Shown here one piece after another: positions 3,564-64,000 of a stretch of DNA of 64,000 nt; the stretch's first letter is position 1, and each line of letters opens with the position of its first letter. Origin of the DNA: Cenococcum geophilum (taxonomy: Eukaryota); assembly GCA_050273025.1 (NCBI GenBank), contig CP158635.1, positions 12,958,001-13,022,000 of the forward strand, written 5' to 3'. Both the position numbers and the translations under genes were made by a program. The notes beneath the pieces were generated by a model, which was not told the origin of the DNA, did no database searches, and worked only from the letters and a program-made list of their open reading frames with translations.

Positions 3564-3610
3564 TTACCCCCCCTTCTATAGAGGCGGAGCTCCGGCGACG
3601 CTATAGTTAC

Positions 3611-18945: not shown

Positions 18946-19357
18946 ATGTAGTGGTGGGATTGCATCTGTTTTTGGGGGTTATTAGCCGCCGCTTTTAGCA
19001 GCGTTCTTACCTCGCTTAGACCCTATCACATCGCCGCTTTAAAGAAGCTCTGTTCGCTTAAGCACTTCCTATCCCTGCCCCGTCTATTATTCTAAAGGGG
19101 TTAGAAATGGGACACGAGCTTTAGTAAAGCTCGTCAGCGCTTATGTTAATTTAACAATAGCACAGCCTATATAAAAAGGCTAGCGTCTACTTAAAGAAAT
19201 GGCCTGCTTACCCTCTCCCTGCACTCTCTCCCTTTACTACCCTTATTCCACTTCCTCTTTTTTTCCCTTTACTATCCTTATTCTACTTCCTCTCTGGCGA
19301 TTTAATCCTTATCTATAATATTTACCTTACCTATTTAGCAAACTCGCCGTTGCTAGA

Positions 19358-21924
19358 ATAGTAGTACACCTATTAAAGTAGCTGCTCTGGCTTATAGGAC
19401 GGAGAGGAGAAGAGCACTCTACGCCGCCGCCGTTTATTAAAACTTAAATCCACAACTCTAAAGTCTAGACTCGGATATAGATACCAACCTAGATATATAT
19501 ATTCGTTTAGAAGATAGTATAGATTTAAATTCTAAAGAACTAGATATAGAATTAGATGCGGAGTTTAATACAGAGTTAGATGCGGGATTAGATGTGGAAT
19601 TAGACTCTAAAGCTAAGGAAATACTAAAAGACATTACTAAATTAGAAGAGGAGGGACCCGCGAAACTAAACTATACTTCTTATACTAAGAAACTATAAAA
19701 GAGGGAAGGCAAAATCTAGGAGATATAAATTATAAAAATTTCTACTAATTTGTTATTACACCCTCTAATTACTATAAACTAGGTACTGCTTAAAGATTAA
19801 AAAGAAAACCTAAAAAACCGTAGACGACTAGCTGCGTAAATGCGCCCTAATAGTATTTAAAGCATATCTCCGCTAGCGGAAGAGACATTTTTAAATTAAG
19901 AAGGAGAGCTTAATGCGGAGCTATTAGAAACAAATTAGCATATGCTATATAGACCTTATACGCCATAAGATGGACGGTGATGTCTTTAATAATGTTTACA
20001 ATATAAGTTCCTACCCCTCCTTTAAGGTAGGCTAATAGTTATAGAAGTGGATCCCAAGCCTTAAGCTTAATAAGTCTGTAAAGGAAAAGTATGCTATATT
20101 CGTCTAAGACCTTTATACTACCCTTTACGCTCTCTAGATTAACGATACTAAGCCACTCTATAGCTTTATTTAAGTCTAAATTTTGCTTCTTCTTTTACTT
20201 AGTGTAGCTATAGCTACAAGACTAGGCGCTCTAGTGGAAAGCGCTAGTACTAAAGGCAGCAATAAAGCCGTCTGGTTTAAGAATATTAACGTTATAGTTA
20301 TTTATAGTAAGAAACACTCTAATAAGAGTATGGTTATAGTAAATATAAACCTAGAATATATTAATAATATAGAAAAGAATAATAAACCGTAAGCTTTATA
20401 CTATATCTAAATAATATATCCTACTAACTATAAATCTATAAAAAGAAATTTACCTTCCGTCTAGAAGACCTTCCTATATTCTATATTATTTCGCATATCT
20501 TAGCTATTAGCGTTAGTTAAGACGCATTTTAAGATAACTTTACGAGTGTTTAAGATATCTTTAACCTTAAGGTATTGGCGTACCGCGAAGTGCTACGCGT
20601 TGGGTGGAAGGACAAAGTACTAAATTAGCTATTCTTCTGCGACGTTAGCTATATAACTAGGGGTGGCAATATTATAAAAGAAAAGGCCTTTCTATACGCT
20701 AAATACTATAACATATTTGTACGCCTAGGGCTTATTACTAGGTTTAAGGAGGTACTAGAGCTATACCAGCTATAACGGGCTTTAGGTAAAAACATTAACG
20801 GTAGAACCGCTTAATAATTACCTCTGGACCTAGTTATATATTAATTATATAGATAGACACTATTACTTTAGAAGAGCGGAACCAGACCATAGGCTATCTC
20901 GGTAGTAAGTATAAGAAGTATTATATATTAACGCATATTACACGTAATTACTAGAGCATCTATTTTAGAAGTCCTTTATAGGATCTCCTTATTAAATCTA
21001 TTATAAGAGTGGGGCTGTTATAAGATCGGCGAGCGCCTATAGAGCTTAATAATAACCAGCTAGAAGAAGTCCGTAATAACCCTAAGCTTAGAGCGCTTTA
21101 TAATAAACGAGAAGAATATAAAAACCTTATCTATAATAAAGGCCTCTACCCTATTACTAAGGCTAAAGGTACTAAATTATACTAGTAATATAAAGAGACT
21201 AAGTGGAATATTGGTATAATGTATTAAAGGTTATAGAGGGAACGATTAATAACCGCTATTCGCGAATTCTATAACTTAATTAACCTAATTAAGATAGCCA
21301 GTTAGCTTAGTAGGAAGGGCCTAACTAAGGTAGGAATTTAAACTTCTAAAGCGGGCTACTATTGCTAAAATACTCTTTACACCTTTTAAAAATAAAAAAG
21401 CCCGGGTTAAGTTTATTAAAAACCTAGCTTAACTATATTACTAAGAAGAAACAGCTTAATGTAAACCTTTAAAATAAAAGAAAATAGACTTTATTATCTT
21501 TAAAAACGAGAAAATATCTTATATACAAAAGCGAAAGGATATTAGTTTTAAGAGTACCTTAAATTACTAAACTCCTAATTATATGTCTCTAAAGGAAGAG
21601 TCGCCGGATAATAAATATTGTGGGACTATTTAATAAGAGCTTAGCACTTTAGACGCCGCTAAAGCTAAAACTATTTAGTTATATCCTATAAAGCTTCCCT
21701 ACCTAGTATACCTTATTTATATAGGCAATAATAGGTTCTTATATAAAAAACAGATGCGCTATATACTATAAAAAGACGTCCTAAAGAAGCATATAGAAAC
21801 CCACTTTTAACTCCCTAAATATTAGAGAGAGTTTTAATATCGCTACCCTAAATATTCCATTAATCTAAATAGTATAATGTATTTTAAGAGATATATATCT
21901 AATACGTATGGAGTATCTTACTAA
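19358..21924 (+). pseudogene. DUF3435 tyrosine recombinase (Starship captain), multi-exon, RIP-degenerate
   Basis: LLLLLSVAIATRLGALVESASTKGSNKAV (de-RIP TRPGALVES, catalytic R), LELYQL*RALGKNIN (YQLRRASG), ERNQTIGYLGSKYKKYY (MGH...Y), and a C-terminal Cys/His region KDVLKKHIETHF...C.HP.C...HFKRH...HGV. Confidence 0.9.
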
Positions 21925-24900
21925 TACACGCAGACTCCCCTTCTACTAGTATATATCGTAAGAGGAACGCATTATTATTACTATCTCTATATTTAAGATA
22001 ATAAGTAAAAAAAGAGAGGGAAGGGAAGAAGGGAGGAAGGTAGTAATAGGTAGCTCCTTCTCTCTTTAGTAATAGATTATATTATATTAAGAAGTTTTCC
22101 TTTAAAGAGAATTCTTAATTAAAAGAAGTAGTAAAAGAAGTAAGAGAGATAGGGGGTAACTTAGCCGCGAGAGTTTATAATAAGGTCCTCTTTATAGCGA
22201 AAGGTATTAGTATTACCACCTATTTACCGTCTATTCGGCACTTACTTATCGCCTATAATAAGTAGACAGCTTATATATAACGTTTATTACTTATCTAGTT
22301 CTTTATAGGAATTTTAATTGCTAATAAGCCAGTAAACTTAAATATATATTAGAAAGAAGAGCGGATTTATAACATAACTAAAACTAGCCTTATAATTTAA
22401 CGTAAATATATACCGCCCAAATAAGCAGATTGCCTCTTTTACTTTTATCTACTCCATATTCTAATAGCCTTAAATACCTTATAGTTCTTGTTTTAGGTTC
22501 TAGAATATCTTCCCCTTAAACTTTAAAGGACCTATAGATCTTGCTTTACGCCTTTAGCTTATACCACCTTAGCCTTACAGCCCTATACATACTAGGTTAA
22601 GGGATAGTCGCTTATAAATTAGCTTCCAGTTTTTACACTTTAGAAATTCTGTATATAGTTACCTATCCTATATATCTATTATACTAGAGACATATTAGAC
22701 GTATTAATTCGTTAATAGTAGTAATACTCTTACACTATTATAGGTATAATAAATATATAAGAGGGTTTAAGTAGTAGAGAATAGTATAATAAGACACAAT
22801 CTATATATATATATAAAAGAAAAGGGATATAAATATAAATATTTTTTTTAAAAAAAACAAAAGAAAGCAATATTCTAGGCAACCTAGACGGCTTAATAGA
22901 TATAAAAAGATCAACCTAGGGTTCGCTAGAAGGCCATATATACAGTTTATAAAAATCCTATTTAGCTCCAAGTAATAGAAACTAGTCGACACTAATAGAG
23001 GAGTAAGATATTAATTAGAGGCTTAAACTAAGTAGGATAAAGAAAATCTAAAACTTAATAAAACTAGCTAGCAACTATAATAATAGTATAGATTGCTATA
23101 ATAAGAACGCCTTTAAGCCAGTCTATTTTAGTGTTAGTTATAGTAGATTACCTATATAGAAAGGAAAACTTACTAGATTTACTATCCTAAATAAGATAAT
23201 TTACTAAAAGTACGGCAATAAATAAAATAGTAATTAGAAAGGTATTAAAATAAAGTGTTATATAATCCTAGCCTATAATCTAACTAAGTATAATAATAAA
23301 TAGGAGAACTAGAAGAGCGATTTGTATACTAAATCTAATAGTAATATTAATTGCTAGATTTATTTTATCCTTATAAGCTACTATAACCGCTATTACGTAC
23401 TTAGTAGCGTTCCTAATAATTAGAAGTAGGATAAGACCGATAAAAGTAGTAGAGATAGTGCCGCTTGCCATAATATTACTAATGCTATTAACTATAAACT
23501 TGGAATAGAAGGTAACCAATATAGTAGAGATTCTGAGGGTTAATATTACACCCTAGATTATTAATTAGGGCTCCTTAATCTTATTATTTTCCTTTTCTGC
23601 GTTTAAATCCTATATAGGCTGTTCTTAGTTTACTCTACCTCTAGATATAGCCGGTGCTCTAGCGCCGATCTATATAATACTATAGAGAGGTATACCCTAC
23701 TTATAGGAGGACCTACGCTTAGGAGCCCTTTGGCTTAGAGTATTATATATTTTAATATATAACTTTAATTAAAATATAAGGTAGCAAATATATATAATTA
23801 GGAGGATAATAGCTATTCTATAGGAAAGCTCTAGATTAAGTATAGAGCTATTAGGGCTCGTAGCTATATAGGTTAGTACCTATTATAGGTCTAAAGCTAT
23901 TATTAAACTTACTTAATAGCGTAGAGTAGAAGGCGGTTAGAATAATTAAACTACTAATATATAGAGCTAGAAGACCGGTCGTAGTACCTACTACTGTTAT
24001 ATTAAAATGTTATTCTACCTAGTTAATGCCTCTAAAGAAGAAGTATATACTAAGGATAAGGAGTAAGTTCAAAAGTATACTACTAATTAAGGAAGTTTTA
24101 ACAATAGTAATCTAGCCCTTAGTTAGGGCTAAAATAGAGATAATTAATTTAATAGTGTTTCTGCGCTAAATATTAAATAATATTAGGACAAATAAGAAGC
24201 GGAGAAATGTACCTAAAAGTTACGTTTAAAAGACTACCTAATATATTACTAGCGCGGAGCGTAATCTCTTTAGTAGTGTAATTAAGCATTACAATAAGCA
24301 GAATAACGGCAATAAAGTTAACGATAAATATAGTAATACTATTAACGTAAAGATAATTAACTACGAAGCTAACAGGAGCGGTAAGAAGAAGTATATTTAT
24401 CTATAAGCTAAATAAGACGGCATAAACCTAATCCTTAGTAGGTATATTACGCTTTAAAGCTACTTTTAGCCTTTCCTTTTTAATTATTAGCTTAAGATAT
24501 AAGGATCTTTGTAGGACTATACTAGCCTCTTTATTAGGTTATTTATCGTTAGGCCTTATCTAGGCTGCTTAATAGGCTTTTAAGAGTGTTGCTAAATTTA
24601 AATATACTATTATAAGCATAGTTTTTAATTTTTCCTATAAAGAGCATAACGGAGAAGGGCAATTTTATAGTTTAGAGGGTACCCATATATAGTAAAGACT
24701 AAGAAGTCTAATAGTACTTAGGCTAACACTAACACCTTAAATCCACAATAGTGTGTTTAGCTTTTTTTTATAGTTAATTTTACGAGTAAGGATCTAAAGC
24801 AAATTCCAAAATAGTTACTATAGAGGAAAGAAGGATTAATGTTAATAACTAGATAGAACGGCTAGTAAAAAAAAAGAAGGTAGAGTGTTCTAATAGATAA

Positions 24901-24959
24901 ATAATAAGTAAAAAGTAAACTAACTACTTATAGAAATAAGGACGTAGTAAAACATATAA

Positions 24960-26400
24960 ATAAGAGTATAAGTCTATATGCCTAAGTACCGGCTGCTTAA
25001 TATCTTAAATATAAGTCCTCCCTTAACGCAAGGCAGATTAATAGGAGTTATTATACCGCCTGTATAAGGCGGAGCGCTTATAAAGGGCTTAGCTAAAATG
25101 CTAATTAAACCACCCTATAACGCACTAATAGCTCCTTTACTATAGATAGGGAGTAAATATATAAGATTAACTGGCTAAGATAAGTCTACTACTTAAGCAG
25201 TACCCTACTCCGTAAAGGGTAGGCGTTAGGAGTAAATTATATAATGCTATTCCTGCTAGGTAAGGCGTCATTAGGGGGTTATTATTGGCTTCCAGTTCTA
25301 GTTTATAATTTTATATAAACGCCTTTAAACCCTACACTATTGGGGCTATCTAAAAGCTAAATTGCCTATTTACCTTATCTTAACCTTAGGCCTAGCTTAT
25401 CAGCTATTAAGGCGATAGGAAGTTATATTAAGGCGTATAATAGGGCTTAAGTAAAGCCACGCAACTAGATAGGCATTACTGTGCAAAGTAATGCTTAACC
25501 AGCTACCTCTATATCACCGTCTTAGAATAATTAGAAGAAAGGGGTTAATACTAGCCCTTATTGTTTAATATAACCCTCCTATAAAGGCATAGCAAAGGTA
25601 GGTATAAACAGAAAGGATTATACTCCTATTATAGCCATATTATAGCGCATTTATAATACTGTACTAATATCCCTAAGTTAGTAAATTAGCTTAACTTTTA
25701 AGGCATAGTTAAAGCGGAGTCCACCATTAGCTCTCCTATTAGCTAGGTAGTAGAAAGGAGCAGGATATAAAAGGCCTTTATATCCTTTAACTAGACCTAT
25801 ATTAAGTATAGTATCCTTTAAGGAAATCCCTTCTTACTTTCTTATAAAGACACTCAAACTATTAGCTACCTTATTTCTTTAACAATAAGCCACTCAGACG
25901 CCATAATAGAGGATACCACATTATATTAGGCCAAGGTGCGCTCTAAACATTAAATCCTTTGCGGGATACCGCTAACGGAGCTAGGATATACTATATACTT
26001 CTAATCCTAAGGGCTCCGATAAGGCCGTTAATATAGTAGGGCAGGTATATAATAGTTGCTTCCCTATAGTTTTATCTAGTTAGCATTAAAATATAAGAGT
26101 AATTTAGAGAATAATAAGGCTAATATAAAAGGAACTATAAGGAAATACTTACTCCGCACTAATAAAATAAAGAAGTCGTTTTAATATAGTCCGTTTAGTA
26201 ACTCCTTCTAATAAAGCTTACCAACCCCTAGCTTACTCTATTAGGGGCAATAAAGAGACTAAGTAGCTTAGTTAATTAACTTACCTATAGGCTTAGCCAA
26301 CTTAATAGGAGAGTTAGCAGCCTTAAAAAATGCGACCGCTATATTATAAGTTATTTAGGGAAGGTTAACAATTGGATTAACAACCTAAGAAGTAACTGGA
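24960..26400 (-). pseudogene. Unidentified RIP-degenerate cargo gene that includes repeat copy 1
   Basis: Coding-like composition; minus frames readable when TAA/TAG are reverted; no family recognised. Confidence 0.35.
24986..25319. repeat. ~334-bp direct repeat, copy 1 (copy 2 at 30609-30942)
   Basis: Aligns at a constant offset of 5623 bp; differences are mostly transitions. Confidence 0.92.
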
Positions 26401-26951
26401 AAGAGATAAGAGATACTATTAAGCGGCTTTAAAATAAAATCCATACTCTTAAGAGAGGTAGTAATAAAACTTTAGATTATAGAGATAAATGGATTATAAA
26501 GGTAAGAAACAAGGTCACGGCATCTAAGAGAAAAAGGGCACGCTTAGCCTAAGGATGGAGAAGTTCGCAGAATTAAGGAGGAAATTTATTAGCTTAAATA
26601 GTACGCTCTTTAGTCTTATATTGTTTGCTTATTAAAGGAAATTTATATATTAGATTTAAGCTAGACTAGCCCCGCCCTTTATAGCAAGTGTTTACCACAT
26701 TTATATACTTAATTAGCAATAAATTAGCAAATCTAACTAAGCTTGGTGTCTAAAGTAAGCAGAACTATATTCTTCTATTATATATTTAAGTCTAGTTGCT
26801 CTACTAGCGTCTTCTTTACTAGTAGAGGATAGCATTATTCTTAAAATAGAAGTTAGTTTATGGAATAATAGAAAAAAAGGGGGCCTATAAGGGTTTCTAG
26901 GTCTAAAGGCTATAAAAACTATTTAATTTACTAATACGGTAAATACCCTGG

Positions 26952-29394
26952 CTATCTTAACCCGCGGAGTTTTACTATTACCCGTTATATCTCCCGCACA
27001 AATTTATTATAATATCCTCTTGGCTACCTACCTAGACCCTCCTTAGGTACCCGTTTTCTCTTTTAATTTAGTAAAATAACACCTAGCACAGCCCGCGGTT
27101 TTAGAACCTCGGCCCGTTTAAAGTTAATTATTATTACTTTGCTAACCTCTATATTCTAAAGCATATTATAAGGTATTACATCTTAGTGCAAAACTCCTAA
27201 TTAATGGACGGCCTAAATTAAGCGCTTAACCTATTCTATTAGGTATAGCCTATTATTACCGTTAATATATTAAGAGATTAGTTTCCCCCTAAAACTAAAG
27301 AATATTATATAAACAATCTCCGTAATACCGTTATAGAAATATAAACGGTTAAGATTGATATTTCCTAGATATACCGGTATATATATACTCTAGATTGGAC
27401 AGAGGCGCTTGTAGACAGTGGCCTTCTAATTTAGGTGGCTAATAAAGTTAATAATAGTGCATTTCGCGGCTAGGGTATATCTATATAACGTTAACCTAAC
27501 CTTAAATAAAGCCCCGCGTGTTCTATATACGCTTACTAGCTTATAATTAGTATCTAAATCTTTTAAAAGTTGCCGGCGTATAAGATTAAGGAAGGTAGGT
27601 TAGTTAATCTAATAACGGCTTCCGCCGTAATCTTATATATTTAAACACGTCTTGTTAAGTAAACCCCCCTCTACTAAGCTAAGAAGACATTTTTAAGTGT
27701 AATACCACCCACCTTTACCTCTATGGCGGGAATCGCGATTAGATAATAATCTGCTAATAGGGTCTAGGGCTTAGGGCAGAGGCTAGGGTAAGGACCGCTA
27801 AGATAGACAGCTTAGAGTATTAGGATTAAACTTATTATTACTAGGCTCGCTTTAATCCTATAATAGGTAATACTAGGGGGAACTAGTTAACGTTGCTCTA
27901 GGTTAAAGCTGGATAGGTAATATATAAAAAAATTATTTTGCCTAGGTGCCCAGTACTCTAATAAAAGCGTATTATATATAGGAATTGTATCTAGTAGATT
28001 ATTATAGATTACCTCCTAGCTTTTTAGTTAAGCGGCCATATTAGTCCGCCAATTTTAACTTTAAGGCGGCGTCTTTAGCGCCTAAAGGGTAAATACTAGC
28101 ATCTGTCTGACGGCGGTTAAATGTAATTAATTTCCCCTATCTAAATCCAGTGCCCATCCAGTTGTCTCCCTAACGTTACCCTTAGGGATAGATAGGAAGT
28201 AGTAAACTATTTTAGGATTATAGGGCACTTATAGAAAGATAAATACTTCGCTAGTGTAAATGCACCTATACTTTAGTCCAGCCTAGACCATATAAGAAAA
28301 GGCCTAAGTAATAATGGCAGCGACTAGGCGACGGAAGTAGTCCTATAGGCTGTCAATCTTATAGCAATAGACTACTTCCTTAAGTTTTATATTATTAAGA
28401 CCCTTATAGATATAGCCAAGAGTTAGTTTATAGGGAGCCTTATACTTAATAATAAAGGTAGTAATATAATGCTCTGTGTTTTAAGTCTTGCTAGAAGTGT
28501 TATATACGCAGAACTAATCTATATAAGGACGCAATAACCTTACTAATTCTGCTATTGCTGTAGCCGTAGGCTCGGCTAGGCTAGCTAAGCTTATCCGCTT
28601 AGCCTAGGCTTAAAGACGGGGTAACCGCCGTCGTTAGTTCCTAGATATACTTATTTATTATATCCTCCTTTATCCGCTATTCCGGGCTAAGAGTATTAGT
28701 ATAATTTTTCTAACCCTTTTAGGCGGAACTTCCGCCGAAGCGTTGGATTATTATAAAGTTGTTTAATAATTAATAATATATAGTCCTTAACGGTATAGCG
28801 CTAAAAGTAATTTAAGTCTAGCTTAGAACTTATTATCCTCTAGTAGATAGCCTCCCTAGACTCTTTTAATATGTATAGTGAAGTAAAGTGCTATTCTAGT
28901 ATAAAATCTAATCCTATAAGGTCGTTCTAGATGGCTTTCTGCTATACTAGAAAATCTTCTTATACTTAAATCCTTTTAGGGCGAATCTTATTATTCGCAT
29001 TAGTAGGGTCGCCCTATATTAATAACGTCGCATTAGTTTAAATAGTAAGGCCTAAGTAAAGGTAGGTATAACAGGCGTTAAGAAACTTAGGTAGTATTGT
29101 CTTACAGATTTTCCCCTTAGCTTCTTCCCGGGCTTGCTCTTCTTCTTACTATTTATATTATTCTTCTTCCTATACGCGCTCTGCTTCTTCCTATATACGC
29201 TCCACTTCTTCCTATATACGCTCTACTTCTTCCTATACGCGCTCTACTTCTTCCTATACGCGCTCCGCTTCTTCTTATTTATACTACTCTTTTTCTCATC
29301 TACGCTGCTCTTCTTATCGTCCGTATTGCTCTTCTTGCCGTTTACGTTACTCTTTAAGGAAAAGCTGTTTATAATCGGGTGACTGTTAGACCAT
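26952..29394 (-). pseudogene. Spok-like protein (N-terminal coiled coil, PD-(D/E)XK nuclease, Cys cluster, kinase-like domain), RIP-degenerate
   Basis: ATG at 29394. EEAERV.EEE heptad-like repeats, KTILPKFLNACY.YL, GDPTNANNKIRP, D*FCVY, FIIKYKAPYKL (IEYKAPHKL), *AFSYMV, ATVYKRLCPI*.IYIPVYLGNINL, GVLH.D..P.NML, IINFKRA (IDFERA). Domain order matches the Spok family. Confidence 0.85.
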
Positions 29395-30059: not shown

Positions 30060-30980
30060 AGTAAATAAACTTATCTAAGGGAAGGCATAGATTGTTATAA
30101 ATGCTTTATAGCTTGCTATAAGTCAAGCGGGCAGAGACTTTAGTGGGAATAGTAAAATATTATTTTATTTCGCGATAGGCTAAATAAAGAGAGGCTAAAG
30201 TTTTAACCCTTTTACCAGCTTTTATTAGAACTCTTCTTTGCATTTATATCTTATACTTATAGATTTAGGACTATAAAGCCAAGGCCACCGTATAGCCTCG
30301 TCGCTTAATATCTCTTTATTACTGTCTACCTATATTTCTTAACCTTTAGTACTAAAACGATTTTCTCCGCTATATAATATCTCTACGTCCCATTCTTAAT
30401 CCTCATTACTAGAGTTACTCTCCCAACCAGTTAACGCCTCTACGTTGCCGTTACTATTTCTAAAGTCGATTTCTCTATCTATAAACGCCTACTTACTAGC
30501 TAACGATTTAGGGACGCTATATTTATAGGTACTTAGGGTTACGGGATACCACTTAAAGAGAAATTGTAGTTAATATTGTTGGGATATAGAATAAGCCTGT
30601 GGGCCTCCGTACTAGTTACTTAGCGCCTTAAATATAAGTCCTCCCTTAGCGCAAGGCAGATTAGTAGGAGTTATTATACCGCCTATATAAGGCGGGGTAT
30701 TTATAAAGGGCTTAGCTAGGATACTAACTAAGCCTCCTAGCAGCGCACTAACAGCTCCTTTACCATAGATAGGGAGTCAACATACAAGATTAACTGGCTG
30801 GGGTAAGTCTACTACTTAAGCAGTGTCTTGCTCCGTAAAGGACGGGCGTTAGAAGTAAATTATATAATATTACTCCTACTAAGGGAGGCGTTATTAGGGG
30901 ATTATTATTGCCTTCTAGTTCTAGTTCACAACTTTATATAAATTTCACTAAACTCTGCTAGGGCATGCGGCGTCCATTAG
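30060..30980 (-). pseudogene. Unidentified cargo gene relic that includes repeat copy 2
   Basis: Readable minus frame downstream of the repeat (DREIDFRNSNGNVEALTGWESNSSNED*EWDVEIL). Confidence 0.35.
30609..30942. repeat. ~334-bp direct repeat, copy 2
   Basis: Matches 24986-25319. Confidence 0.92.
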
Positions 30981-44546: not shown

Positions 44547-45818
44547 CCCTAGAGTGGGACCTAGTAGATATATACTATACAGATGGCTCTAAAGATAGTA
44601 AATCAAATATAGCTGCCGTATGCAAAATAGGGGAGAGAAATAGGATCAAATATGTAATAAACTGGAATTTAGGACCTTATATGGAAATTATAGACGTAGA
44701 GCTTTATATAGTCTATAGGGCCCTAAAATACCTAAAACAACAAAGACTAGAAGAGAAACAAGTCTATATCTTTATAGATAGCTAAGCGGCTATTAAGAGA
44801 TTGCAGCTTAATTCTCTTATAGGGGGACAAGAGCTAGTCTTTAAAATCACGCAAAGCTATTCCTACTTAGCTAGTAAGGGTATCTCTATTAACTTCTATT
44901 GGGTTCCTAGCTATTTAGGAATCTATGGAAATGAAATAGCAGATAAGCTAGCTAAAAAGGGCCTCTCTAGAAGAAAACTACAATCTTCTTATACTTCTTT
45001 AGCCTACCTAGGGAGACAAGCAAGAGAAAAGATACTAGAACAGTGGAAAGACAATTGGCAACAGAATAAAAGCAAAGGAAAACACTATACTAGAATCTGT
45101 AAAGGAAACTACCCCTTTTCTTTTAAAGCCCCTAAGGATAAATATCCTAAAAGGCTACAATCAGCTCTCTTCCAACTAAAAGTAGGAAAAGGCTTCTTTA
45201 AATCCTTTTCTAAAACAATAGGGAAGGATAAAGAAGGTAGATGCTTTAGGGACTGTACCGCGGTACAAACCCCTACGCATCTATTACTAGAATGCAGACT
45301 ATATTGGGAAGATAGAAAGGAAATGCAAAGACAAATAGGCTCTTCTCTTTCCCTAGAGAAGCTTTTTTGCACAAAAAAAGGAAGAGGGGCGCTTTTTCTA
45401 TTTTTAAGTAGGACAAAAATAGCTACTGGAAAGTGGCTAAGAGCAGCAGGATCTCTAGAAGGAGGTAACTCCTACTAAAGTCCTAGTAGATAGACTATAG
45501 AAAGCAAAAGGACAGAAATAAACTACAAATAGGACAGGGACAGGCGTTAGGATTACTTTTATTTCAATTTTTTTCTACTATTTTCCTACCGTTTTCTTAC
45601 TACCTAATAGTTGCTAGCAACCTAGTATTTACTAGGAAGCTGTAAATCCCTAATTTAGGGATTTATAAACTACTAGGACACAGCTACTAGTACATATTAA
45701 GCTGTCTAGAAAGGATTCATATATATAAAACTATAGCGCCATAGCCTAGAGGCTGCATGCGTAGTATTGTACGTAGTATAATACAATGGATATAAAAAGA
45801 AAAAAAAGAAAAAAAAAA
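44547..45818 (+). mobile_element. 5'-truncated LINE (Tad1-like): RNase H domain, C-terminal CCHC motif, 3' UTR and poly-A
   Basis: YTDGSK...IFIDS*AAI...WVPSYLGIYGNEIADKLAK (RNase H) and C...C...QTPTHLLLEC. A-rich tail at 45794-45818. 16-bp TSD GAATAAAGGCTGTAAT (44531-44546) / GAATAAGGGCCGCGAT (45819-45834), differing only by transitions. Confidence 0.93.
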
Positions 45819-48009: not shown

Positions 48010-49280
48010 TTAATTAATGCTTGGGTTACTATAACCGCCTAGGTTAAAATTAAAACTAATGGTATTGCCTATAAAAGCGCTATTGGAACCCGCGGGGATA
48101 CTAAAACTAAGCTTACTGGGGTTCCCTATTGCTATTCCGTAAGAGTCTATACTTAACTTAAAATTAGCCGCGTTATATATAAAAGCGCTATTAGAGCCCG
48201 CCAGGGCACTAAAACTAAGCTTATTAAAGTTCCTTATTACCATTCTATAAGGGTCTATATTAAACTTAATATTAGCCGCGTTATATATAAAAGCGCTATT
48301 AGGACTTATAGGGGCACTAAAACCAAGCTCGCTGAGGTTCCTTATTGCCATTCCGTAAGGGTCTATATTAAACTTAATATTAGCCGTGTTATATATAAAA
48401 GCACTATTAGAATCTGCCGGGGCATCAAAACTAAGCTTGTTAAAGTTCCCTATTACCATTCCGTAAGGGTCTATATTAAACTTAATATTAGCTACGTTAT
48501 ATATAAAAGCATAGTTGGAACCCACCGGGGTATTAAAACCGAGCTCGCTAAGGTTCCTTGCTGTTATTCCGCGAGGATCTAAGTTAAACTTAAAACTGGT
48601 AGTAGTGGAACCTAGGGGGGGCTTATTTTAAGGGGTGGCTATAGTATTCTAAGAATAGTATAACCTAGGAGACTCTTTGGCTACGCTTCTTATTAGGGCT
48701 TCTACGTCGGAAGCTGATCTTAAAGTCTTAAAAAATAATGCTAATATTGGCATAAGCGGATTGAATAAAGCTTTTGTAAGGTACTTACCCGGAATAACTC
48801 TTATAAATAGTCTATAAACTTTAATCTAGTACGCAGATATTTTAGGGTAGGACTATTCGTTATAAACCTAGAGACTATTAATGCTGCGGAGATTAATATT
48901 ATATTCTATATAGAAGGTATAAGCAATAGCCTTAGCCTAAATCCTATAGCCTAGGCTAGACGTGTTTTAAATATACCTGCGTAATCTTTTTTTAGATCCA
49001 TATTTTCTACTATAGTTAATAACTAGATAAACCTCGCCTTTACCCCTTTACTTTATAACCCTAGCTTTACCCATATTATTAAATAAAGTACTAACTAGGC
49101 CCTCTAAATATGTAATGCTAATGCTTAATAATTTAATATACTTTGGAATATGCTCTAGCTTATTAGAGTTAAACGGTATTACTTTAGTAAACGGTACTCT
49201 AATGCTCTTCTTAAGGTTGCTAAGCCGCTCTTTAAGAGCCTTAAATATATACTATATACGGGAAAATTAGGAACATCTAT
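48010..49280 (-). pseudogene. Unidentified cargo gene with ~4.5 tandem 40-aa (120-bp) C-terminal repeats
   Basis: ORF 48010-48525 repeats PAGSNSAFIYNAANIKFNIDPYGMAIGN.S.L.F; a 120-bp period is visible in the DNA. Confidence 0.65.
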
Positions 49281-53674: not shown

Positions 53675-56600
53675 TGTTACGGCTTATATAAATGCCTTTG
53701 AACCAAAGCTTGTAGAATGCTGTATTACGAAGATACTAAGCTAAAGAGAAGGAAAAGGGGTCGCCAGGACCGATGTAAACAAATATATAGGGTAAGCCGC
53801 CAAGGCGCTAGCTTTGGGCGGGCCAATCACAGGTCGGCAGAATATGGCAGAATTTAGCAGGTAACGTGCGATAGCGCCGTTACATTACCCCCCTCTTTAA
53901 AAGAAAGCCTGCCCTTAGGCTTAGTTAGAAAAAATAGGGTAGCACTAGGCTTATAAATGTAGGATTATAAAAATATAAGATGAGGAGATAAAGGGAACAT
54001 AAGTCCGTCCTAACTAAGTATAAAGGGCGATTATAGGCTAAGTGGAAGTACTAGGCTAGAAAGAGTAGCCGCTAAAAGTCTTAGCATGGATCTAACCAAT
54101 TAGACAACTTTAACCGGCGGTTAAAGTTCCTAAACATCTAAAATTTTATGGTACTAGCAGAAAACGGCAGAATATGGCAGAATTTGGCGGACAGCTGTAT
54201 TAAGGCTTTGGGGCGTTTTTGTCCCTATATTCTTTCGGTAACTTATTATCTTTATTATACTAGCATTCCATCCATTTATCTAGGTACTTTAGGGGTCTAG
54301 GCGTATTAGGGTATTGGTTATAGAATTCTTTAAGCTTCTAGGGGTAGCCTATAAAGTTCCACATAGGGTACCAGGTTGGGTCAGGATTGTAGCCCTTCCA
54401 TTAAACACGGTATTTTAGCGCTCCCCGTACTATCTTATAGGCTAGTATTTTATTAACCTCCTATTCATTATCACCGTTTACTTAAACTAGTAGGGGAAGC
54501 TCATTCTTTTATTTAGGTAATAGGTTGTTTACAGCTTTCCATAACTTATCTAATAAGAAAATAGGGTAAACCCTAATTAAGTCTGGGAGCTTTATCTTAT
54601 ATAAGTTACCTATCTTCTTAAAAACCTTATATAGTCCTGCCATCTAGTAATCTAGCTTACGGCTAGGTTATTTAGTCCTTTAATTCCTTATTATAACCTA
54701 GACCATATCGCTAAGGGCAAAATTAGGCTCTTAACGGTGTTTATTCGCCTACTATTCTATTAACCTCTAAGCTTTTTCTAGGTTCTTGCGGGCTACCGTT
54801 TAGGCATCCTCTAATCATTTAGCGTACTATTAGGCCTTAACATAGAATAGCTTCTCTTATATAGTCTAGGGTTCTTCTAGCCTTTTTTAGTTAAAGCTTA
54901 TACGGGGTAAGTATCCCATTTCCAGCTAAATTGGGGCAAACCCTATAGAGTTATAGGGTAAGGTTGCTTGCGCGTAGTTTATTAAGGGTAGTAGTTTAAA
55001 CTAGTTATCCTAGAAATAGTTAATAAAGGGCCTAAGCCTCTAGTCTAGGTACTAATTTACAATCTTTATCTAACCGTCTATCTGGGGGTAATAAGCTATA
55101 AAAAGCTTTAGCTTAATACCTAGGATTTAGGTAAACTTATTCTAGAAGGCTAATATAAACTATAGCCTATAATCGGATATAATAGTATCTAGTAGTCTAT
55201 AGATTTAGTAAACGTAATAGATATATAGCTAGGCTACCTCTTTAGCATTAATATTCTTATAACATGGAATTAAAAACGGGCGTTTACTAAAGCGGTTAAT
55301 TATAACTATAACTATATTATATCCGTTACGGTCCCTAAGTAGTTTATAAAAGTCTATAGAGATATACTACTAAGGGCGCTCTAGTATTAGGAGTAGCTTA
55401 AGTAGTCCTAGGGTCTTATCCCGTAGGATTATAGCTCTTTAGTAGTCTTTACAGTTCCGTATATATTAATTAATATCCACAACTATTCTCGGCCAGTAGT
55501 AGCGGTAGTTAATAATTTTATAGGTCTTATTCTTGCTAGGGTATACTGTAGAGACTTAGTAATAAGCTTCGCGGATTAGTTTAGTTTATAGATTATTAAC
55601 GTTAGGGACTATAAGCCGCTCCTAGTATAGGAGCAATCCTTCCTCCATCTTAAAATCGGGGTCTTCTTTCGCGGCTTATTCGCGGAGGGCCCTTAGGGCA
55701 TTAGCCGTGCGGTTTATAGTTAGGAGGCGGTCAATTAGCCCTATTAGCTTATCTAAGGACTCCTCTATTAGTACTAGCTTGTTTTACTAGAAGTCTAGCT
55801 CCTTAAGAATCCGTAAGTTAAGCTATTCTAGATAAAAAAGGGCGCGCGTCCAATATTAGGTCTTTAGCTTATCCTAAGGTCCTACATCTTATTCTCTTTA
55901 GGTTAGGGTATTAGCCTTAGAGTTTTACTTACTAGAATAATATATAATTATAAAGAAGAATTAGGAGAGTATTTCGGCCTACTAGGCTTATCGCCCCATA
56001 AGCTGCTTTATAGTCATAAAGTACTCTAGGGCTTTATAATCTATATATATCTTAATCCAGGAGTTTATACCTTTAAGCTCTGCGCGCCATTAAAAGAGTA
56101 ATTAAATAATAGCTAATATTTCTTTATTATATACTTCATAGTTATACTTAGCTAGGTCTATTATCTTTAAGAAGAAAGCTATAGGGTACTATTCGCCATC
56201 TAGATGTAACTGTAATAGGATTCCCGCTATAACCCTATTAAAGGCGTCTATTTCTAGCATTAATTTAAGGTCCGGGTTATAGTAATAAAGGATTAAGGAA
56301 GAGATAAGCTAATTCTTTACCTCTTTAAAGGCCTCCCTATAGCTATTATTAAAGATAAAAGGCGTATTCTTCCTAGTTAGTCATATAAGAGGTTTTGCCA
56401 TAATTCCGTAGTTATAGATAAACCAGTAGTAGAAATTATAAAAACTAAGAAAGGACTAGATTCCTTTTACTATATAAGGGGGCTTCTAGTTACGGATTAC
56501 CTCTACCTTCTTAGGGTTAACCTTAATTCCTTCCGTAGTTACGATAAACCTAAGGTATTTTATACGTTTTACCCTAAACTCGCATTTCTTAATATTAACT

Positions 56601-59600
56601 TATAAGCCCGCGTTCCATAGTCTCTCTAGGACCTTCTTAATATAAACTTAATACTTAAGTTCGTCGTCTAAGTATATAAGAATATCATCTAGGTATACCG
56701 TGCAGAATTCGTTAAGGTAATTAAAAAGAACGTCATTTATATACCTTTAGTACGTAGCTAGTCCGTTTATTAGTCTAAAAGGAAGAACTTTATATTTATA
56801 GGAACCATAGCGGGTATAGAATATTATTAAATCTTTAGATATAGGGTCTATCCTAATTTAGTAGAAAGCTTAGCGGATATTAAGTTTAGTAAAGATCTTT
56901 ACCTGGCTTAGACGTATAAGGGTCTTATTAATTAAAGGAATAGGATACCGGTTCTTTTAAGTAATAGTATTTAGCTTTTAATAGTTAATATAAAAACGAA
57001 GGCCTCTATTAGGCTTTTTTACGAACAGGATAGGGGAAGTAAAAGGGGCTTAACTTAGCTCGATAAACCCTTTATCTAAGTTATTAATTAAGTACTACTT
57101 TATTGCTTTTAGCTTATCCATCAATTAATAGTAGAGGGGGCTATAGCCTAGCAAGTTATTAGCCTCTAATTAAATCTTATAATTATACGTCTAATAGGGG
57201 GGTAACTTGTTTAAGGCCGCCTTTAAGAATGTATCCTTATAGCCTATATAAATAGTAAGAAGAAGGCATTTAACTAGTTTCTTATTAGTTTCCTTATCTG
57301 GCCTTTTCTCTCTATTATTAATAATTCGGTTAATCTTATATAGGCTTATTATAAAGACCTTATTATCCTTCTAGTATATATTAAAGTAGAACGCTACAGC
57401 GCTAATTACGGCGATGTTTATAGTAGGGGGGTTAACTAATAATAGGGGCGTATATAACTTTAGGGACTTCTAGGGTACTAGCGTTATCGTTACTCCTTTT
57501 AGCTCTTATTATATCTTTTAGAGGTTATCCCTTATATCCTATTAATACGTTCTTTTTTATAACGGTTAAATCTATACAATTTAGACGTTATCTATATTAT
57601 TATCTATCCCGCTTCTATATATAGAGTCCTCTTTAAACATAGCGCTTTGGAAGAGTATCTTTATTAATATAGAGTTCTTTCTAGCTTCGCGGTAGGCGTT
57701 CTTTTAAATAAAGGCTAGGTTATAGGCCCAGACATCCTACTAGTAGGTAGAGTTAGCCCTTATAGCTAGTATCTTATAGTTAGTTCAGATCTCCCTAATA
57801 AAGAAGGGTAACCTTAGTCTATCCTCCGGCTAAACAAACCGTCTTTTTTACATATTTAACTAAATATTAAAATAGGACATCCATTTTCGTCTAAGGATTA
57901 TATTATAGGACCCTAGGTCTAGGATACAAAAGGGGATACTATATTAGCGTCGTCCGTTAAAAGCAATATATAACTTTAAGACATAGGTAACAGGCTAACC
58001 GGCTTAGCCGTTATAGCCCTTTACCTAAATAGGCTTCTCTAGTTAGATGGCTTCTATATTTAGAAACTTAGCAACATTATTTATATAGGCAGTATTTATA
58101 AAGGCGAAGCTATTTACTCTAGTATTAATAAGGGCGGTTATATTAACTCTATATCCATTTTAAGATACTATATATAGAACCGTAAAATACTTTCCACCTA
58201 TTAACTAACTAAGATTAATCTCTTCGAGATTAATAGGGTACCCTAGGGGGGAGTCTTTCCTTAGGGTTTTTCTTTTCCTAACTTATCGGACGTTTCTCCT
58301 TCCTCTATTTTCTTAATATCGCCTATATCCTTTAGCTCTAGGCAGGATAAGGTAAAGTAACCTTACTTATTACAGTTAAAGCATATAGCCGAGGCAGGGT
58401 TAATTAGAGTATTACGGCGAATACTAGTTAATGGCGTAGTATATAGCTGGTTAGGCAAGGCTTGTTAGGGCATAGTTATAACCGCCTTTAGTATAAGAGT
58501 AGTTATAACTTATCTTCCTACTCTAGCTCCTATAGGTATAGCTAGCAAGTTCCAATTATTATAGAGTCGCTTCTGCTAATTAGGGTGGGCGTTAATCCGC
58601 TTTAGTTCTAAGTCTAATAATAGGCAACAAGCTATAAGTTTTTTGTGGGTTAGTAGGTTATCTAAGGTTACAGCAATCTTTTCTTATAGCTAGATTGTTA
58701 GCTTATTATATAGGTCTAATTAGTAGTTCTTAAGGGGAACCTAGCCTTCTCCTATAAGGTATAGGAATTAAGTTTAGAATTCAGCAAAGGGTTAGTTCGG
58801 TTTTATTATTAGGTAATTATAGTTATAACAAGCATCCCGTACTTTATTTAGGTTAATATAGATAGCCACTAGGTACCATATTATCTTATTAATAGATATA
58901 AATTAGATAGGGGAGTCATCCTCAAACTTGGCTTAAAGGTGCCGTTAGGCGTCCCTAGTAGTTTAACCAAAGAGGTAGAGCATTTTAGCTTCTTTAAAAA
59001 GGAAATAGTTATAGTTAACGCGGAGCTTTCCTTATACTTAAATCCTCTAATTCTTAAAGGTAGGGTCTATCCTATTAGACAATAGTAGGGGGTTAGGGAG
59101 CTTAACGGACTTTAATTGCTTTATTATTATATCCGTACTCCCTAGTATATCGTATTTAGTAGAGTAAACAGGTCGGCTAGGGCTTTAAAAAGGGGAAGCT
59201 AGGCTATTTCATAGGGCCACAAGGCTTTCTAGGATCTCTTATAGGGTCTCTTATATATTTCTCACTTTAAGACGATTAGCTTCCTAGCTAGCTGCAAGGG
59301 CGCGAATCTACTCGCGTATATCTACGATATTATTATTATCTTCAATTTCTAATCCCAATTAGATCTTAGGTTCCTCTTAGGTAGAGGCAGCTCTCTTAAA
59401 TAAGCTTACTTTAGGTGCCATTATTAGCTTCCTAAGGTTTGTCGGTATTATACGCTTTAGTTTTAATTCTAGGGGTATAGGTCCAGTCCTATCTGGCTTA
59501 TAAGGTAGGATATTATCTAGGCCTTCCCAGGCAATATAAAGTTGTTTTAGTGTCTAAGTATAGTGTATTAATGCGTCGTTGCAGACGAAGTTTCTTTGGG

Positions 59601-59861
59601 GTAGGATATTATTAAGGCCTTCCCAGGCAAGGTAGGGAGAGCTTAGTATAATGTTACGGCTCGTACAAATGCCTCTAAACCGAAGCTTATAGAATGCTGT
59701 ATTACGAAGATACTAAGCTAAAGAGAAGGAAAAGGGGTCGCTAGGACCGATGTAAATAAATATATAGGGTAAGCCGCTAAGGCGCTAGCTTTAGGCGGGC
59801 TAATCGCAGGTCGGCAGAATATGGTAGAATTTGGCAGGTAACATACGATAGCGCCGTTACA
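53675..59861 (-). mobile_element. Full-length Gypsy/chromovirus E (6187 bp), RIP-degenerate, pol related to A
   Basis: 210-bp LTRs at 53675-53884 and 59652-59861 (TGTTAC...GTTACA), perfect TSD CAGAC, PPT next to 53884. Gag with a CCHC knuckle (~58345-58385), protease, RT (YLDDIL ~56690), RNase H, integrase, chromodomain. Confidence 0.96.
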
Positions 59862-59866
59862 CAGAC

Positions 59867-60572
59867 TAGGAAGCGTCGTTATACGAAGAAGGTTATATAG
59901 GCTAAGGATTTTATTCCCTTCTTTACACGGGAATTACAGAACCTCTAAAAACGGGTATCACTTTTAGAAAAGGGAAAATCTAGTAAAAGCGCTACTGAGG
60001 AGCCTAAGAAGCCTAAGGAGCTTAAGAAGCTTAGGGAGCTTAGAGAGCCTAAAAAGTCTAGGAAGCTTAGAAGCGTCAAATTCCTATATCCGCTCTATAC
60101 TAAGGATTTTACTTAGGTAGATAATCTCGCAAGATACCTTAAGAAGAAGCATTAATTTAAATGCAATAATTACTGCAAAATTTATAACAGGCAATTCGGA
60201 GCGTTAGTAATATTTACCCGTCACTTAAAGGGCCATTATCCTAGGTTAGTTTAGGAGAATATTATTAACTAAGGGTCCTATAAGTCTGGACTAGGGCTAC
60301 CTAAGTAATTGCCCTCACAGCTATATAAAGACATTAATGCGACACCTCTTCTATAGCCTTTTAGCGATACATTAGACGAAGCACCTTTAAATTCTCTTGC
60401 TAAGCAAATAACGCAGTATTTTTCACATAATGTTTTGGACATATTTAGTACGGCACCCTTTAATATATTTAGTGCGGCACCCTTTAATCCTCCTAGGGCT
60501 TTTAATATATTTAGTGCAGCACCCTCTAATTCTCCAGTAGAGACGATATACTAGCCGCTCTTAGGAGATTAA
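59867..60572 (+). pseudogene. C2H2 zinc-finger protein (two fingers); its 5' part probably lies left of Gypsy E (~53450-53674)
   Basis: EPKKPKE repeats, then FLYPLYTKDFT*VDNLARYLKKKH and YCKIYNRQFG....FTRHLKGH (de-RIP C..C...F.....L.RH...H); 24-bp repeats near 60430-60530. Confidence 0.7.
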
Positions 60573-61239
60573 GCTATAAATAATATAATACCCGCTAGAC
60601 TTACCTTAAGTAGTAATAATAAAGAGGCATTTATTAAGGATATTATAGTAAGTTAATTAAAGTTCTCTCTTCTATAATACTATGACTAACTAGAAGATGC
60701 TATAGCGTGGATTATTACGCAATTTAGCCTTAGATCTAAGTATTATTAACTAGCTTTTAACATTATCTAGCGGCGCTAAAGTAAGTAAATAACGCATTTT
60801 TTTAAGTTAATTCCTACTCCCTAACTATAGATTAGTACTATTATTTTTAAATAAACGTATAGCGTTAAGGTGCTAGGTTATACTATATACTAGTAGATTT
60901 ATATAAATAGAAATTTTGCTATATAAGGGTATTCTATTTAGATTCTAGCTAACTATACTATAGTAGTCTTAAATTAATTTACTTTACACGCTACTATAAT
61001 AGAGCTTCCCGTTTCTAAATTATATAATTGCTACTATAAAAATAGTTATTTCCGGCCAGCTCTTCAATTTTATTACCTACTTAGTAGTTAATCTTTCCGT
61101 GCCTAGAAAACCCTTTACCTAAGTATAAAACCACAATAGCGTGTATATTAGGAATTGGTTACTTCTTAAGGTAAGGTTTTAAGTGTAATAACTAGTAATA
61201 ACAAATAAAGCTTAATATTGTTAGTAAATGCGACTCTAT

Positions 61240-61990
61240 AAGGTTTCATATCACATATATATTGCCCCCATTTACTCTTACTTCTCCTATCTATCTACTG
61301 TCTACTCTATAAGAAGACCTATTAATCTAAACTATCCACGAAATATCCTAATCTCTACCAAAATGGAAACACCAAGCCCCTATAAGTTCTTTAATTAATA
61401 CCATCTTTTACCATTCTAGATCTTAGCCTATACGTTTACTGCGACCAAATCGGACAGGAAAGCAAGCCGTAATAAAAAAATCGTCGTTTTAAGCCAAGAA
61501 AAGTATCGTTTGGACAGCCTAGACAATATTAGTCCTCCTCTAAAAGTCTCCAGAATATGCTTACTTTATTTAAAACAATATCTCTTTTAACATAGTCTAA
61601 GGAGGCTAGGTATTCCGGCAAAGTAGGCTTAACACTTATAGCTCCTTTAAGGACGAGACACCTATCCTTATAAAGAGCTTGCAAAGCCTTATCAAAATTC
61701 ATTTTTAGAGAGAGCTTTTGCCCGCCGCGCTTAACGACCTTAATATCCATATGCTTATTAGCTGGCCGTATAGCCCTTACTCCAAGGTTATAGTTGTTTT
61801 ATTACTCTAAAATTCGAGCTATATAGGGCAGGTTTGGCGGGGCATAATCATTAACTGGATTCGCTAGCACGTAATGCCTGGTAAGATAGATAAATATAAT
61901 ACACTAAGTCCCACAACAAACTATTAAATTGTAGCGATATCTAATTCAATAATTAGCCCTTAAGGCGTGTGAGCTTATATTCCCTAAGTC
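61240..61990 (-). pseudogene. Unidentified cargo gene relic
   Basis: ORF remnant 61529-61750 continues in frame past a TAA (YCLGCPNDTFLGLKRRFFYYGLLSCPIWSQ). Confidence 0.4.
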
Positions 61991-62309
61991 TTCTTAGCAA
62001 TATATACCAGATCTTTTAAAGCGGATAAGCCTTATAGCTAACCTCTATTAAATAAGTTTAAGGCTATAACATAAGGCTCTAGTAGTAAAGTCTAGGTAAG
62101 TGCTATAAATATAAAAAATGGAAACAACTTTTAGTGCTAAGAGGAGAATTATAAACTAGAGGCTCTATTAGACTTAGAGCAACTAAGTATAGGTTAGGTG
62201 GTAAGGCTTAGAGGGAGAGAATAGGTAGGTTTAATTTCTTAGAAAATAACTTAGATTAAATAACAGTGCCCGCCCTCTAATAAAGAATTATATAGAGGTT
62301 CTATAAAGC

Positions 62310-62375
62310 GGCTAGGAGGGCTAGGGAGGGCTAGGGAGGGCTAGGGAGGACTAGGGAGGACTAGGGAGGGCTAGG
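62310..62375 (+). repeat. (GGCTAGGGAG)n 10-bp tandem repeat, about 6 copies
   Basis: Directly visible; the same unit occurs about 2.5 times at 51775-51800. Confidence 0.9.
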
Positions 62376-62480
62376 ACCCCACAAAGATTAAGGTCCTACT
62401 ACTTTTTCTATTTTTTAACATTAACCGTCTACGCCTTGCCCTATATTTCTTACTATAGCTATCCAAACTTCTTTATAAAA

Positions 62481-64000
62481 ATGCCGCCAATTACCTAATA
62501 AACTTCCTTAGCCTAAAGTCCCATACGCAAGGGGCGAACGCCTACCCGTATACTAAGGTTAACGACTAAAGCCTCCTTTAAAGAGCGAGGTTTATTAAGC
62601 GCGACGCGTAAAGAGGCTGTAAGTAAAGCCATTAGCAAGGGGGGCGTTTGTTTTCCTTATAAGGAGGTTATTAAAACTAGAGCGGGTATCCCTACCTTAA
62701 GCGTAAACTATAATAGCTTTTTATTCCCTTAGCTATGACTTTTTTAATAATACTAACTTCTCTAAGATCTTCCCGGAATAGAAGAACAGCAAAGCTTAGC
62801 TGCTATTACGCACAGTATTACTACGGAGTTAATAGCAATATTACCGCATCTTATTAACCTAAGGATCTTAAATTAAACAGCTTATAACCTTAATTATCTT
62901 ACCTAAGAGAATTACATCTTAATAATAGGGTAATCGGAACCCCCTAGTTTCTAAACACCTAATAATAAAACAAATAGCCTTCCGGATAAAGTTCTTTATC
63001 CTATAATAAAAGTAAAGTTTATACGCAAGTATTATAGCTCTACACTTAGGAACTAATATTTATATAACAGTTGTAAGGGGTCCTACTATAAAGTTTATTT
63101 TAGATTATACAGACAAACAAAACACGGTTAAATAAGATATTATTATAGCTATACAAATTGCCGTTATGCTAAGGGCGCGGGCCTTTCTTCCAAAAAAGCT
63201 CTTACCGCTTATATTAAGCGTTACGATTTAAACCGTTATAAAAGCATTCCAAATAGACCATAAATCCTTCCCTAGTATAGCGCCGCTTTAGAACTAATAA
63301 AATATCTATACCCTTTACTAGGTTATAAAAAGGCTATTAAAATAGGTTTACCTTTAAAAAAGAATCTTTGCGGCTATATTAAAGACCACCACAGCCTTAA
63401 AAGAGTTTATTATCCTTACCAAGATTATAGATAATTAACCGGCCTAGGGCTATCCTCAAAAAAAGCCCTTACCCACCACTTAAAAGATTCCCACAGTTCT
63501 AGAGCATATTTTTGCCATTATGTCACCTATAATTAAGCTAGAGGCTAAGGCCTGCCCTCTAAAGCTACTTTTCGCCGCCATATTAGGGATATTTACGGCG
63601 ATAAAAAGAAATGCCCCTACCCTAACTACAAACAAGCCACTAGCAAAGGCTTTTATAATATATCCTACTTTTACCGCTATATAGACGGACATTCTAAATT
63701 ATATCTTTGCCCTTATATTAGTTGCAAATTCTCTAAAGGCAAAGGGCTAGGTACTAAAGAAGCTCTTTTTATATATAAAAGGAGGGCTTACAGCTCTCTT
63801 TAATTCCACTATAGTATACCTAATTACAAAGAAGCCACTAGAAGAGGGTTATCTTGCAAAAATAGTTTTTAAAATTATATAATAATGGTCCACAGCTCTA
63901 GTTCCTATTATTGCCCTAATATTAACTGCGAATAAGCTACTAGCCAAGGATTTTATTTAGAAAGAACTCTTTAGGGGCATATAAACCGTGTTTACGGCCC
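62481..64000 (+). pseudogene. Poly-C2H2 zinc-finger array protein, runs off the window end
   Basis: From ~63050 there are about 9-10 repeats of ~30 aa, e.g. YYSYTNCRYAKGAGLSSKKALTAYIKRY, YYPYQDYR*LTGLGLSSKKALTHHLKDSH, KCPYPNYKQATSKGFYNISYFYRYIDGH, LCPYISCKFSKGKGLGTKEALFIYKRRAY. Confidence 0.8.

Follow-up and report, generated by a model that had tools for sequence, protein, structure and literature searches.

The 64-kb stretch of Cenococcum geophilum DNA described here (GenBank assembly GCA_050273025.1, contig CP158635.1, positions 12,958,001 to 13,022,000 of the forward strand; hereafter the window, numbered from its first letter) probably holds one end of a derelict, multi-copy element of the Starship type, the length of which is not fixed by this window. 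In the reading that we prefer, and to which we assign a probability of roughly 55%, the DNA starting at position 18946 is the 5' end of an element led by a DUF3435 tyrosine recombinase gene (the 'captain'). The element would have inserted into a Gypsy retrotransposon, here termed Gypsy D, would carry at least a Ca2+/H+ exchanger gene, and would be one of a family that had grown to tens of copies before repeat-induced point mutation (RIP) killed it. Direct observation covers the break in Gypsy D, the relic of the captain together with the way it points, the relic of the exchanger gene, the presence of many copies, the signature of RIP and a nested Gypsy element with its target-site duplication. 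The element is of a known kind; what is unusual about it is the high copy number together with the amplified transporter gene.

Gypsy D, the break and the captain relic

The pol relic of Gypsy D occupies 15847..18943 on the minus strand and is truncated on its 5' side. Residues 382-1391 of the Gypsy polyprotein P0004 (1392 aa) map collinearly onto 18937..15847 of that strand by tblastn, and residues 368-977 of P0003 map onto Gypsy D as well; by eye, the P0004 match extends to residue 380 at nucleotide 18943, and the residues upstream of that are unmatched. In P0004 the reverse transcriptase (RT) domain RVT_1 covers residues 241-401, with YLDD at 350-353. Taken together, the mapping and these domain limits mean that Gypsy D retains the last ~20 residues of RT as well as RNase H, integrase and chromodomain, i.e., the pol order of Ty3/Gypsy elements (RT, RNase H, integrase, chromodomain). 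It ends ~30 residues past the position of YLDD, and the RT core with YLDD, the protease and gag are absent. Six-frame Pfam scans, reading stops as X and using a threshold of E <= 0.01, covered 18001-53702 and 59863-64000 (1-18000 and 53703-59862 being covered by tblastn with Gypsy pol relatives only) and placed RT_RNaseH_2 at ~18404-18685 in Gypsy D (E 2.4e-13); RIP damage lowers the sensitivity of such domain scans. The probable 3' long terminal repeat (LTR) of Gypsy D, with coordinates taken from the initial annotation, lies at 15539..15961 (minus strand), and no second copy of it was found in the window by self-comparison. In contigs from other copies there are loose ends at 15562 and joints at 15961/15962, as would be expected at the borders of a repeat unit.

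The break between Gypsy D and the captain-led DNA falls at 18944..18946 and would be the true boundary of the element. The GC content changes across it from 0.24 (18400-18945) to 0.43 (18946-19460). The initial annotation had Gypsy D stopping in the middle of RT at ~18945, and this was borne out, since the homology ends at 18943 and the composition shifts at the same place. Three Gypsy pol relics lie in the 19 kb to the left of the break; the 45 kb to its right hold one Gypsy element, one RNase H relic and gene relics.

Two observations concern the immediate surroundings of the break. The stretch 18946-19460 has a (CpA+TpG)/(ApC+GpT) ratio of 0.76, compared with 0.20 to its left and 0.38 to its right, and is clearly less RIP-mutated than both neighbors; its first 197 bp (18946..19142, plus strand), from the break to the start codon of the captain, presumably comprise the terminus of the element and a promoter. 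On the Gypsy side, positions 18931-18942 read TTACTAGTTAAA. This sequence matches the target consensus of the HEPHAESTUS family, TTAC(N7)A, and stops 1-2 bp short of the break. The consensus has a density of 4.1/kb in the window, which corresponds to a chance of ~4.5% that one ends <=5 bp from a random point.

The first gene after the break is a full-length captain relic (19143..21924, plus strand), which points away from the break and has its ATG 197 bp from the discontinuity. In known Starships the upstream boundary lies <=7 kb, usually <=2 kb, from the captain, according to the available text of the starfish paper (PMC11162782). The Pfam family DUF3435 was recognized in two plus-strand frames (E 5.4e-10 and 8.5e-10; 39.2 and 38.6 bits against a cut-off of 25.8). 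A word-based search yielded two full-length relatives, P0001 from Zopfia rhizophila (815 aa) and P0002 from Pyrenochaeta sp. (756 aa), which themselves score as DUF3435 with E 3e-78 and E 2e-83, respectively; Table S3 of the starfish paper has P0002 among its 'tyr' genes. Both relatives map to the relic in five pieces (summed E 4e-156), those of P0001 being collinear and taking residues 93-815 to 19462-21921. Residues 1-30 of P0001 match the frame that opens with the ATG at 19143, with a local score of 69 versus 22-25 in the other frames. The N-terminal match at 19143 and the collinear match as far as 21921 together indicate that the relic is full length. The gene itself is dead, with 38 in-frame stops in 757 aligned codons; a 1-nt frameshift and three gaps of 62-64 nt, which come with changes of frame and resemble introns, separate the mapped pieces. 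A start near 19198 was also considered and was rejected, as the ATG there, at 19199, belongs to a different frame. The inward-pointing DUF3435 relic of the initial annotation was recovered by Pfam once stops were read as X, and the relatives show it to be full length on the plus strand; its nearness to the break was correctly seen, but not the distance, which had been given as ~400 bp.

Some further searches with the captain region were less productive. An alignment of 11 relatives, examined for catalytic residues, contained only six invariant columns, none of them informative. A RIP-tolerant IUPAC pattern of 18961-19004 had no matches in a metagenome scan and none but itself in the window, while a metagenome scan with P0001 returned one contig of 1024 bp (61% identity) without flanks. 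One contig from a public run spans 19117-19329 and differs from the window at 23 of 213 letters.

The exchanger relic, copy number and RIP

A Ca2+/H+ exchanger gene relic (CAX, Na_Ca_ex; 23031..24647, minus strand) lies 1.1 kb past the stop codon of the captain and is convergent with it. Pfam Na_Ca_ex was found at ~23067-23546 on the minus strand (E 8.2e-8), and residues 1-385 of P0009 (385 aa) map onto 24647..23031 in four pieces (summed E 2.4e-110). The search for homologues gave 38 proteins, with eight of the top 13 being paralogues from C. geophilum. An artefact of composition, considered as a source of the Na_Ca_ex match, is ruled out by these homologues and by the full-length mapping of P0009. 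Among themselves the eight C. geophilum paralogues share 43-78% identity, versus 33-52% with the Penicillium homologue P0015. This pattern points to amplification of the exchanger within the lineage, and judged by their sequences the paralogues look like the result of such an expansion.

The annotated C. geophilum exchanger paralogues number at least eight (P0007-P0010, P0012-P0014 and P0019); they measure 293-385 aa, which is shorter than usual, and are distributed over at least five large contigs. It may be that partly RIP-damaged copies of the amplified gene were here annotated as genes. The locus-tag numbers of C. geophilum captain and exchanger fragments on one contig were weighed as a sign of adjacency and set aside, as these tags are not known to be numbered by position.

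The share of sampled words across 24 public runs was ~0.6 in four (all from one sample), 0.14-0.29 in 16 and <=0.02 in four, where low shares say nothing about absence. Contigs of four runs were aligned to 13001-33000 at 88% likeness. Depth was present in all 30 bins in all four runs; the contigs were short, and none was seen to bridge or skip the break. Regarding run X1, the perfectly matching contigs had a depth of 77-98, and the summed depth was 1776-3777 over the captain region (19004-23005), 5479-24127 over positions 23006-26340, 1207-2047 over 27008-29675 and 7248-31489 over 29676-33000. A summed depth of 53610-1087410 was reached over the Gypsy part. In the captain region the summed depth is thus 20-40 times that of the perfectly matching contigs, although summed depth is not a copy number and depends on RIP divergence around the 88% likeness threshold. 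At eight listed captain positions, 1-35 distinct contigs per run carried another letter, and among the kinds of difference listed in X1 transitions accounted for 2282 of 2431. The contig counts show many diverged paralogues of the captain, the exchanger and everything else between 19 and 33 kb in all four runs.

The presence of many copies is supported independently by proteins. An exhaustive protein search with the read-through captain gave 138 matches, of which ~31 were short fragments (38-135 aa, 55-85% identical). The fragments closest to the relic are from C. geophilum: two annotated protein fragments of C. geophilum 1.58, on different scaffolds, are 84-85% identical to it, and a third occurs in a newer assembly of the species. 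Table S3 of the starfish paper (PMC11162782) contains 132 'tyr' rows in 106 neighborhoods for C. geophilum 1.58, many of them a few hundred bp long; these look like RIP-broken captains of the same kind. By themselves, the matches to the fragments and to this table would assign the window to C. geophilum or a close relative. The expectation of the initial annotation that automated annotation would miss such an element is therefore doubtful, given that starfish called these 132 'tyr' genes or gene fragments. The available text of the C. geophilum genome paper has the word 'Starship' once, in the reference list only, and does not contain 'Crypton', 'DUF3435' or 'tyrosine recombinase'.

The window is AT-rich throughout, with a GC content of 0.28-0.37 per 2 kb except in 4001-8000, and only two open reading frames (ORFs) of at least 150 aa are present (44801-45478, and 48010-48525 on the minus strand). 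The RIP index TpA/ApT is 1.55-1.85 throughout, and (CpA+TpG)/(ApC+GpT) is 0.32-0.60 throughout, but 0.78 in 4001-8000. When the window was compared with itself, repeat pairs were 82-92% identical and became 97-100% identical once purines and pyrimidines were merged (a shuffled control gave no matches >=150 bp). The divergence is accordingly made up almost entirely of transitions, which is the mark of RIP.

Extent of the element and alternative explanations

The history proposed for the locus would be as follows. A captain-led element would have landed inside the RT region of Gypsy D; by analogy with its family, the recombinase, while live, would have excised the element and pasted it. A captured host-type gene, the Ca2+/H+ exchanger, would have traveled behind the captain while the family multiplied to many diverged copies per genome. 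RIP acts on repeated DNA only, and it would then have destroyed the copies because the family had become so numerous. Retroelements would have inserted into the element later. The DNA beyond the exchanger gene presumably belongs to the same element.

The locus resembles the Starships HEPHAESTUS, Enterprise and Voyager in that a DUF3435 recombinase is the first gene, points inward and lies near the upstream boundary, in that a host-type gene follows the captain, in the site (AT-rich transposable-element DNA) and in that the copy was destroyed by RIP after duplication. The starfish paper (PMC11162782) reports a preference of some Starship families for AT-rich or transposable-element sites and terms RIP-dead copies derelict or degraded, and in experiments with HEPHAESTUS duplicated Starships were killed by RIP, as described in the available part of PMC10104507; features of the family were also drawn from sections of PMC8092012 and PMC9156397. 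Unlike the Starships, which are expected to be low-copy (PMC11162782), the element has tens of diverged copies per genome, and DUF3723, FRE, PLP and NLR genes, which are frequent but not obligatory in Starships, were undetected. Cryptons, which are small and carry only a tyrosine recombinase, are similar in that a recombinase gene with introns leads a multi-copy element, and the depth would permit a unit of ~4 kb; they differ in that an amplified non-transposon gene adjoins the captain here. According to the text available from PMC9156397, the DUF3435 captains make up a clade that is equally distant from the recombinases of Cryptons and of bacteria.

Several results weigh against the preferred reading. 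The right end of the element is outside the window, and a second end, a direct repeat, a terminal inverted repeat and an empty site were all unseen. The missing 5' part of Gypsy D was found nowhere in the window by tblastn or self-comparison, and a search of the window for inverted or direct copies of the left terminus (18938-19010) gave one match where 1.6 were expected by chance. The six-frame Pfam scans detected no Spok, NACHT/NB-ARC (NLR), DUF3723, ferric reductase (FRE) or patatin (PLP) domains in the regions scanned. Copy number is high, with tens of variants per run, and the summed depth rises ~2- to 6-fold at ~23006 and varies by segment and strain. This step could mean that the captain-bearing repeat unit is only ~4 kb long, or could equally reflect uneven RIP divergence near the 88% threshold. 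Moreover, many DUF3435 genes are not known to lie within an element.

The initial annotation proposed the left end of a Starship of >45 kb. That a left end is present is plausible, but the size was overstated: both the figure and the notion of a single element rest only on the absence of the 5' half of Gypsy D from the window, which a deletion explains equally well. Beyond the captain the scans recognized just three Pfam families, namely Na_Ca_ex, ankyrin repeats and RNase_H, and ~30 kb to the right of the captain are without a recognizable gene. Candidate cargo comprises the exchanger relic and an ankyrin relic at 34.6-35.3 kb, which are presumed to be linked to the captain. Gene relics of non-transposon origin had been described as far as the end of the window; this is true of the exchanger and ankyrin relics but not of the nested Gypsy, the RNase H relic or the stretches 45601-53702 and 59863-64000, where no family was recognized. 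Of the Spok-like and ankyrin/NLR-type genes that the initial annotation named as frequent in Starships, only the ankyrin repeats were found in six frames, with neither a Spok-like nor a NACHT/NB-ARC domain.

Two other explanations were considered. It is unlikely, in our view, that the mobile unit was a compact DUF3435 element of ~4-6 kb (the captain with or without the exchanger) that multiplied like an ordinary transposon, the other ~40 kb being unrelated RIP-mutated repeats and the other half of Gypsy D having been moved past the window by further nested insertions or lost. Such a unit would agree with the depth in X1, which is fairly even over 19004-23005, steps up at 23006, drops at 27008-29675 and rises again, and with segment ratios that vary by strain, X14 having a depth of 27-49 at 27008-29008 versus 450-1185 in the captain region. 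Copy numbers in the tens are commonplace for small transposons but out of the ordinary for Starships, and repeats with the DUF3435 domain were initially filed as Cryptons in repeat libraries, as recounted in the available text of PMC9156397. However, depth is not a copy number and is shaped by RIP divergence relative to the 88% threshold, and the exchanger beside the captain is itself amplified, so that at least some cargo was carried. No end of an element is visible in 21925-24967, Gypsy D nowhere resumes in the window, and retroelements are unusually scarce to the right of the break relative to its left side.

More improbable still is that the break is a scar left by deletion or ectopic recombination among dead repeats, with the captain an orphan fragment that has lost the original ends of its element and to which the DNA on its right need not belong. 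The genome of C. geophilum measures 178.5 Mb, with 78% transposable elements and RIP affecting 73% of it, according to the available text of the genome paper, so that truncated and scrambled elements are to be expected everywhere. The absence of the missing half of Gypsy D from the 45 kb that follow the break and the failure to find a terminal repeat also fit a scar. Against this, the captain is complete from ATG to stop and the break is only 197 bp upstream of it, just where the 5' end of a Starship is expected, so that a random deletion at this point would be a coincidence. The other split Gypsy of the window (557-3379 and 13850-14181) is cleanly divided by an insertion with a target-site duplication, and clean nesting thus does occur here.

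If the break is a true terminus, as the preferred reading has it, the locus would illustrate cleanly the insertion of a Starship-type element into a retrotransposon, its multiplication and its elimination by RIP. It would also show that elements of this type are able to reach high copy numbers where a genome is giant and repeat-rich, and to turn a transporter gene into a family of paralogues by spreading it. A derelict captain on its own would be unsurprising where repeats make up 78% of the genome. Somewhat doubtful, and offered tentatively, is the further proposal that one family burst to tens of copies in this lineage, carrying and amplifying the exchanger gene before RIP killed all copies. 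If this were true, captain-led cargo elements would have added measurably to genome expansion and to the lineage-specific expansion of gene families, a role credited so far in C. geophilum to Ty3, Ty1 and Tad1 retroelements only. RIP-dead captains are recoverable by reading through stops, and 'cargo' beside a captain should be assigned to one element only after a check of its copy number and of any retroelements nested in it.

Other features of the window

To the right of the captain lies a complete nested Gypsy element (53675..59861, minus strand) with 210-bp LTRs (53675-53884 and 59652-59861), TG..CA ends and a perfect 5-bp target-site duplication, CAGAC. Its LTRs are 92% identical, and 100% with transitions ignored; the pol relic is at 57337..54323 on the minus strand. 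This Gypsy is a later insertion into the 'cargo'.

The ankyrin-repeat gene relic (~34557-35280, plus strand) has about seven repeats and few stops, matches Pfam Ank_2 (E 5.7e-35) and Ank (E 2.6e-24) and shows an internal periodicity of 102 bp in self-comparison; neither NACHT nor NB-ARC was found beside it in six frames. An RNase H relic (44570..45478, plus strand) overlaps the ORF at 44801-45478, with a match to Pfam RNase_H at ~44570-44965 (E 2.8e-6, 28 bits). Pfam detected no RT domain upstream of it, and the relic probably derives from a non-LTR (Tad1-like) retroelement.

Self-comparison also revealed a 368-bp direct repeat on the plus strand, with copies at 24968..25335 and 30591..30958 that are 82% identical, and 97% with transitions ignored. 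An interpretation of this pair as LTRs was rejected, as it is without TG..CA ends, a target-site duplication, and an RT or other domain between the copies. A tandem repeat at 48037..48600 overlaps the minus-strand ORF at 48010-48525 and consists of five or so copies of a 108-bp unit (36 aa), which are 97% alike with transitions ignored and correspond to no Pfam family; nor was any Pfam family found in six frames in 45601-53702 as a whole. The last part of the window (59862..64000) is RIP-mutated DNA, judged by the RIP indices, and yielded no recognized family in six frames. By eye, the read-through translation of ~63300-64000 (plus strand) has repeated Cys..Cys...His..His spacings like those of C2H2 zinc fingers, without a Pfam match, and there is a weak internal repeat between 63316-63470 and 63817-63971. 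No Rfam family reached its gathering score in the window and the tRNA scan gave no genes, so that no 5S rDNA or tRNA target came to light.

To the left of Gypsy D, a 10.5-kb LTR element at 3371-13849 cleanly interrupts the second Gypsy copy (557-3379 and 13850-14181, plus strand), a relative of the Gypsy copy at 57358-54209. The inserted element has 195-bp LTRs that are 100% alike with transitions ignored, a target-site duplication AGAAA/GGAAA and a Gypsy pol relic of its own (11113-8609). Inside this element lies the sole GC-richer, less RIP-mutated stretch of the window (4001-8000, GC 0.44-0.50), with tandem repeats at 4326-5160 and 6094-6700 and a pair of 271-bp direct repeats (5377-5647 and 7413-7683) with 94% identity, or 99.6% with transitions ignored.

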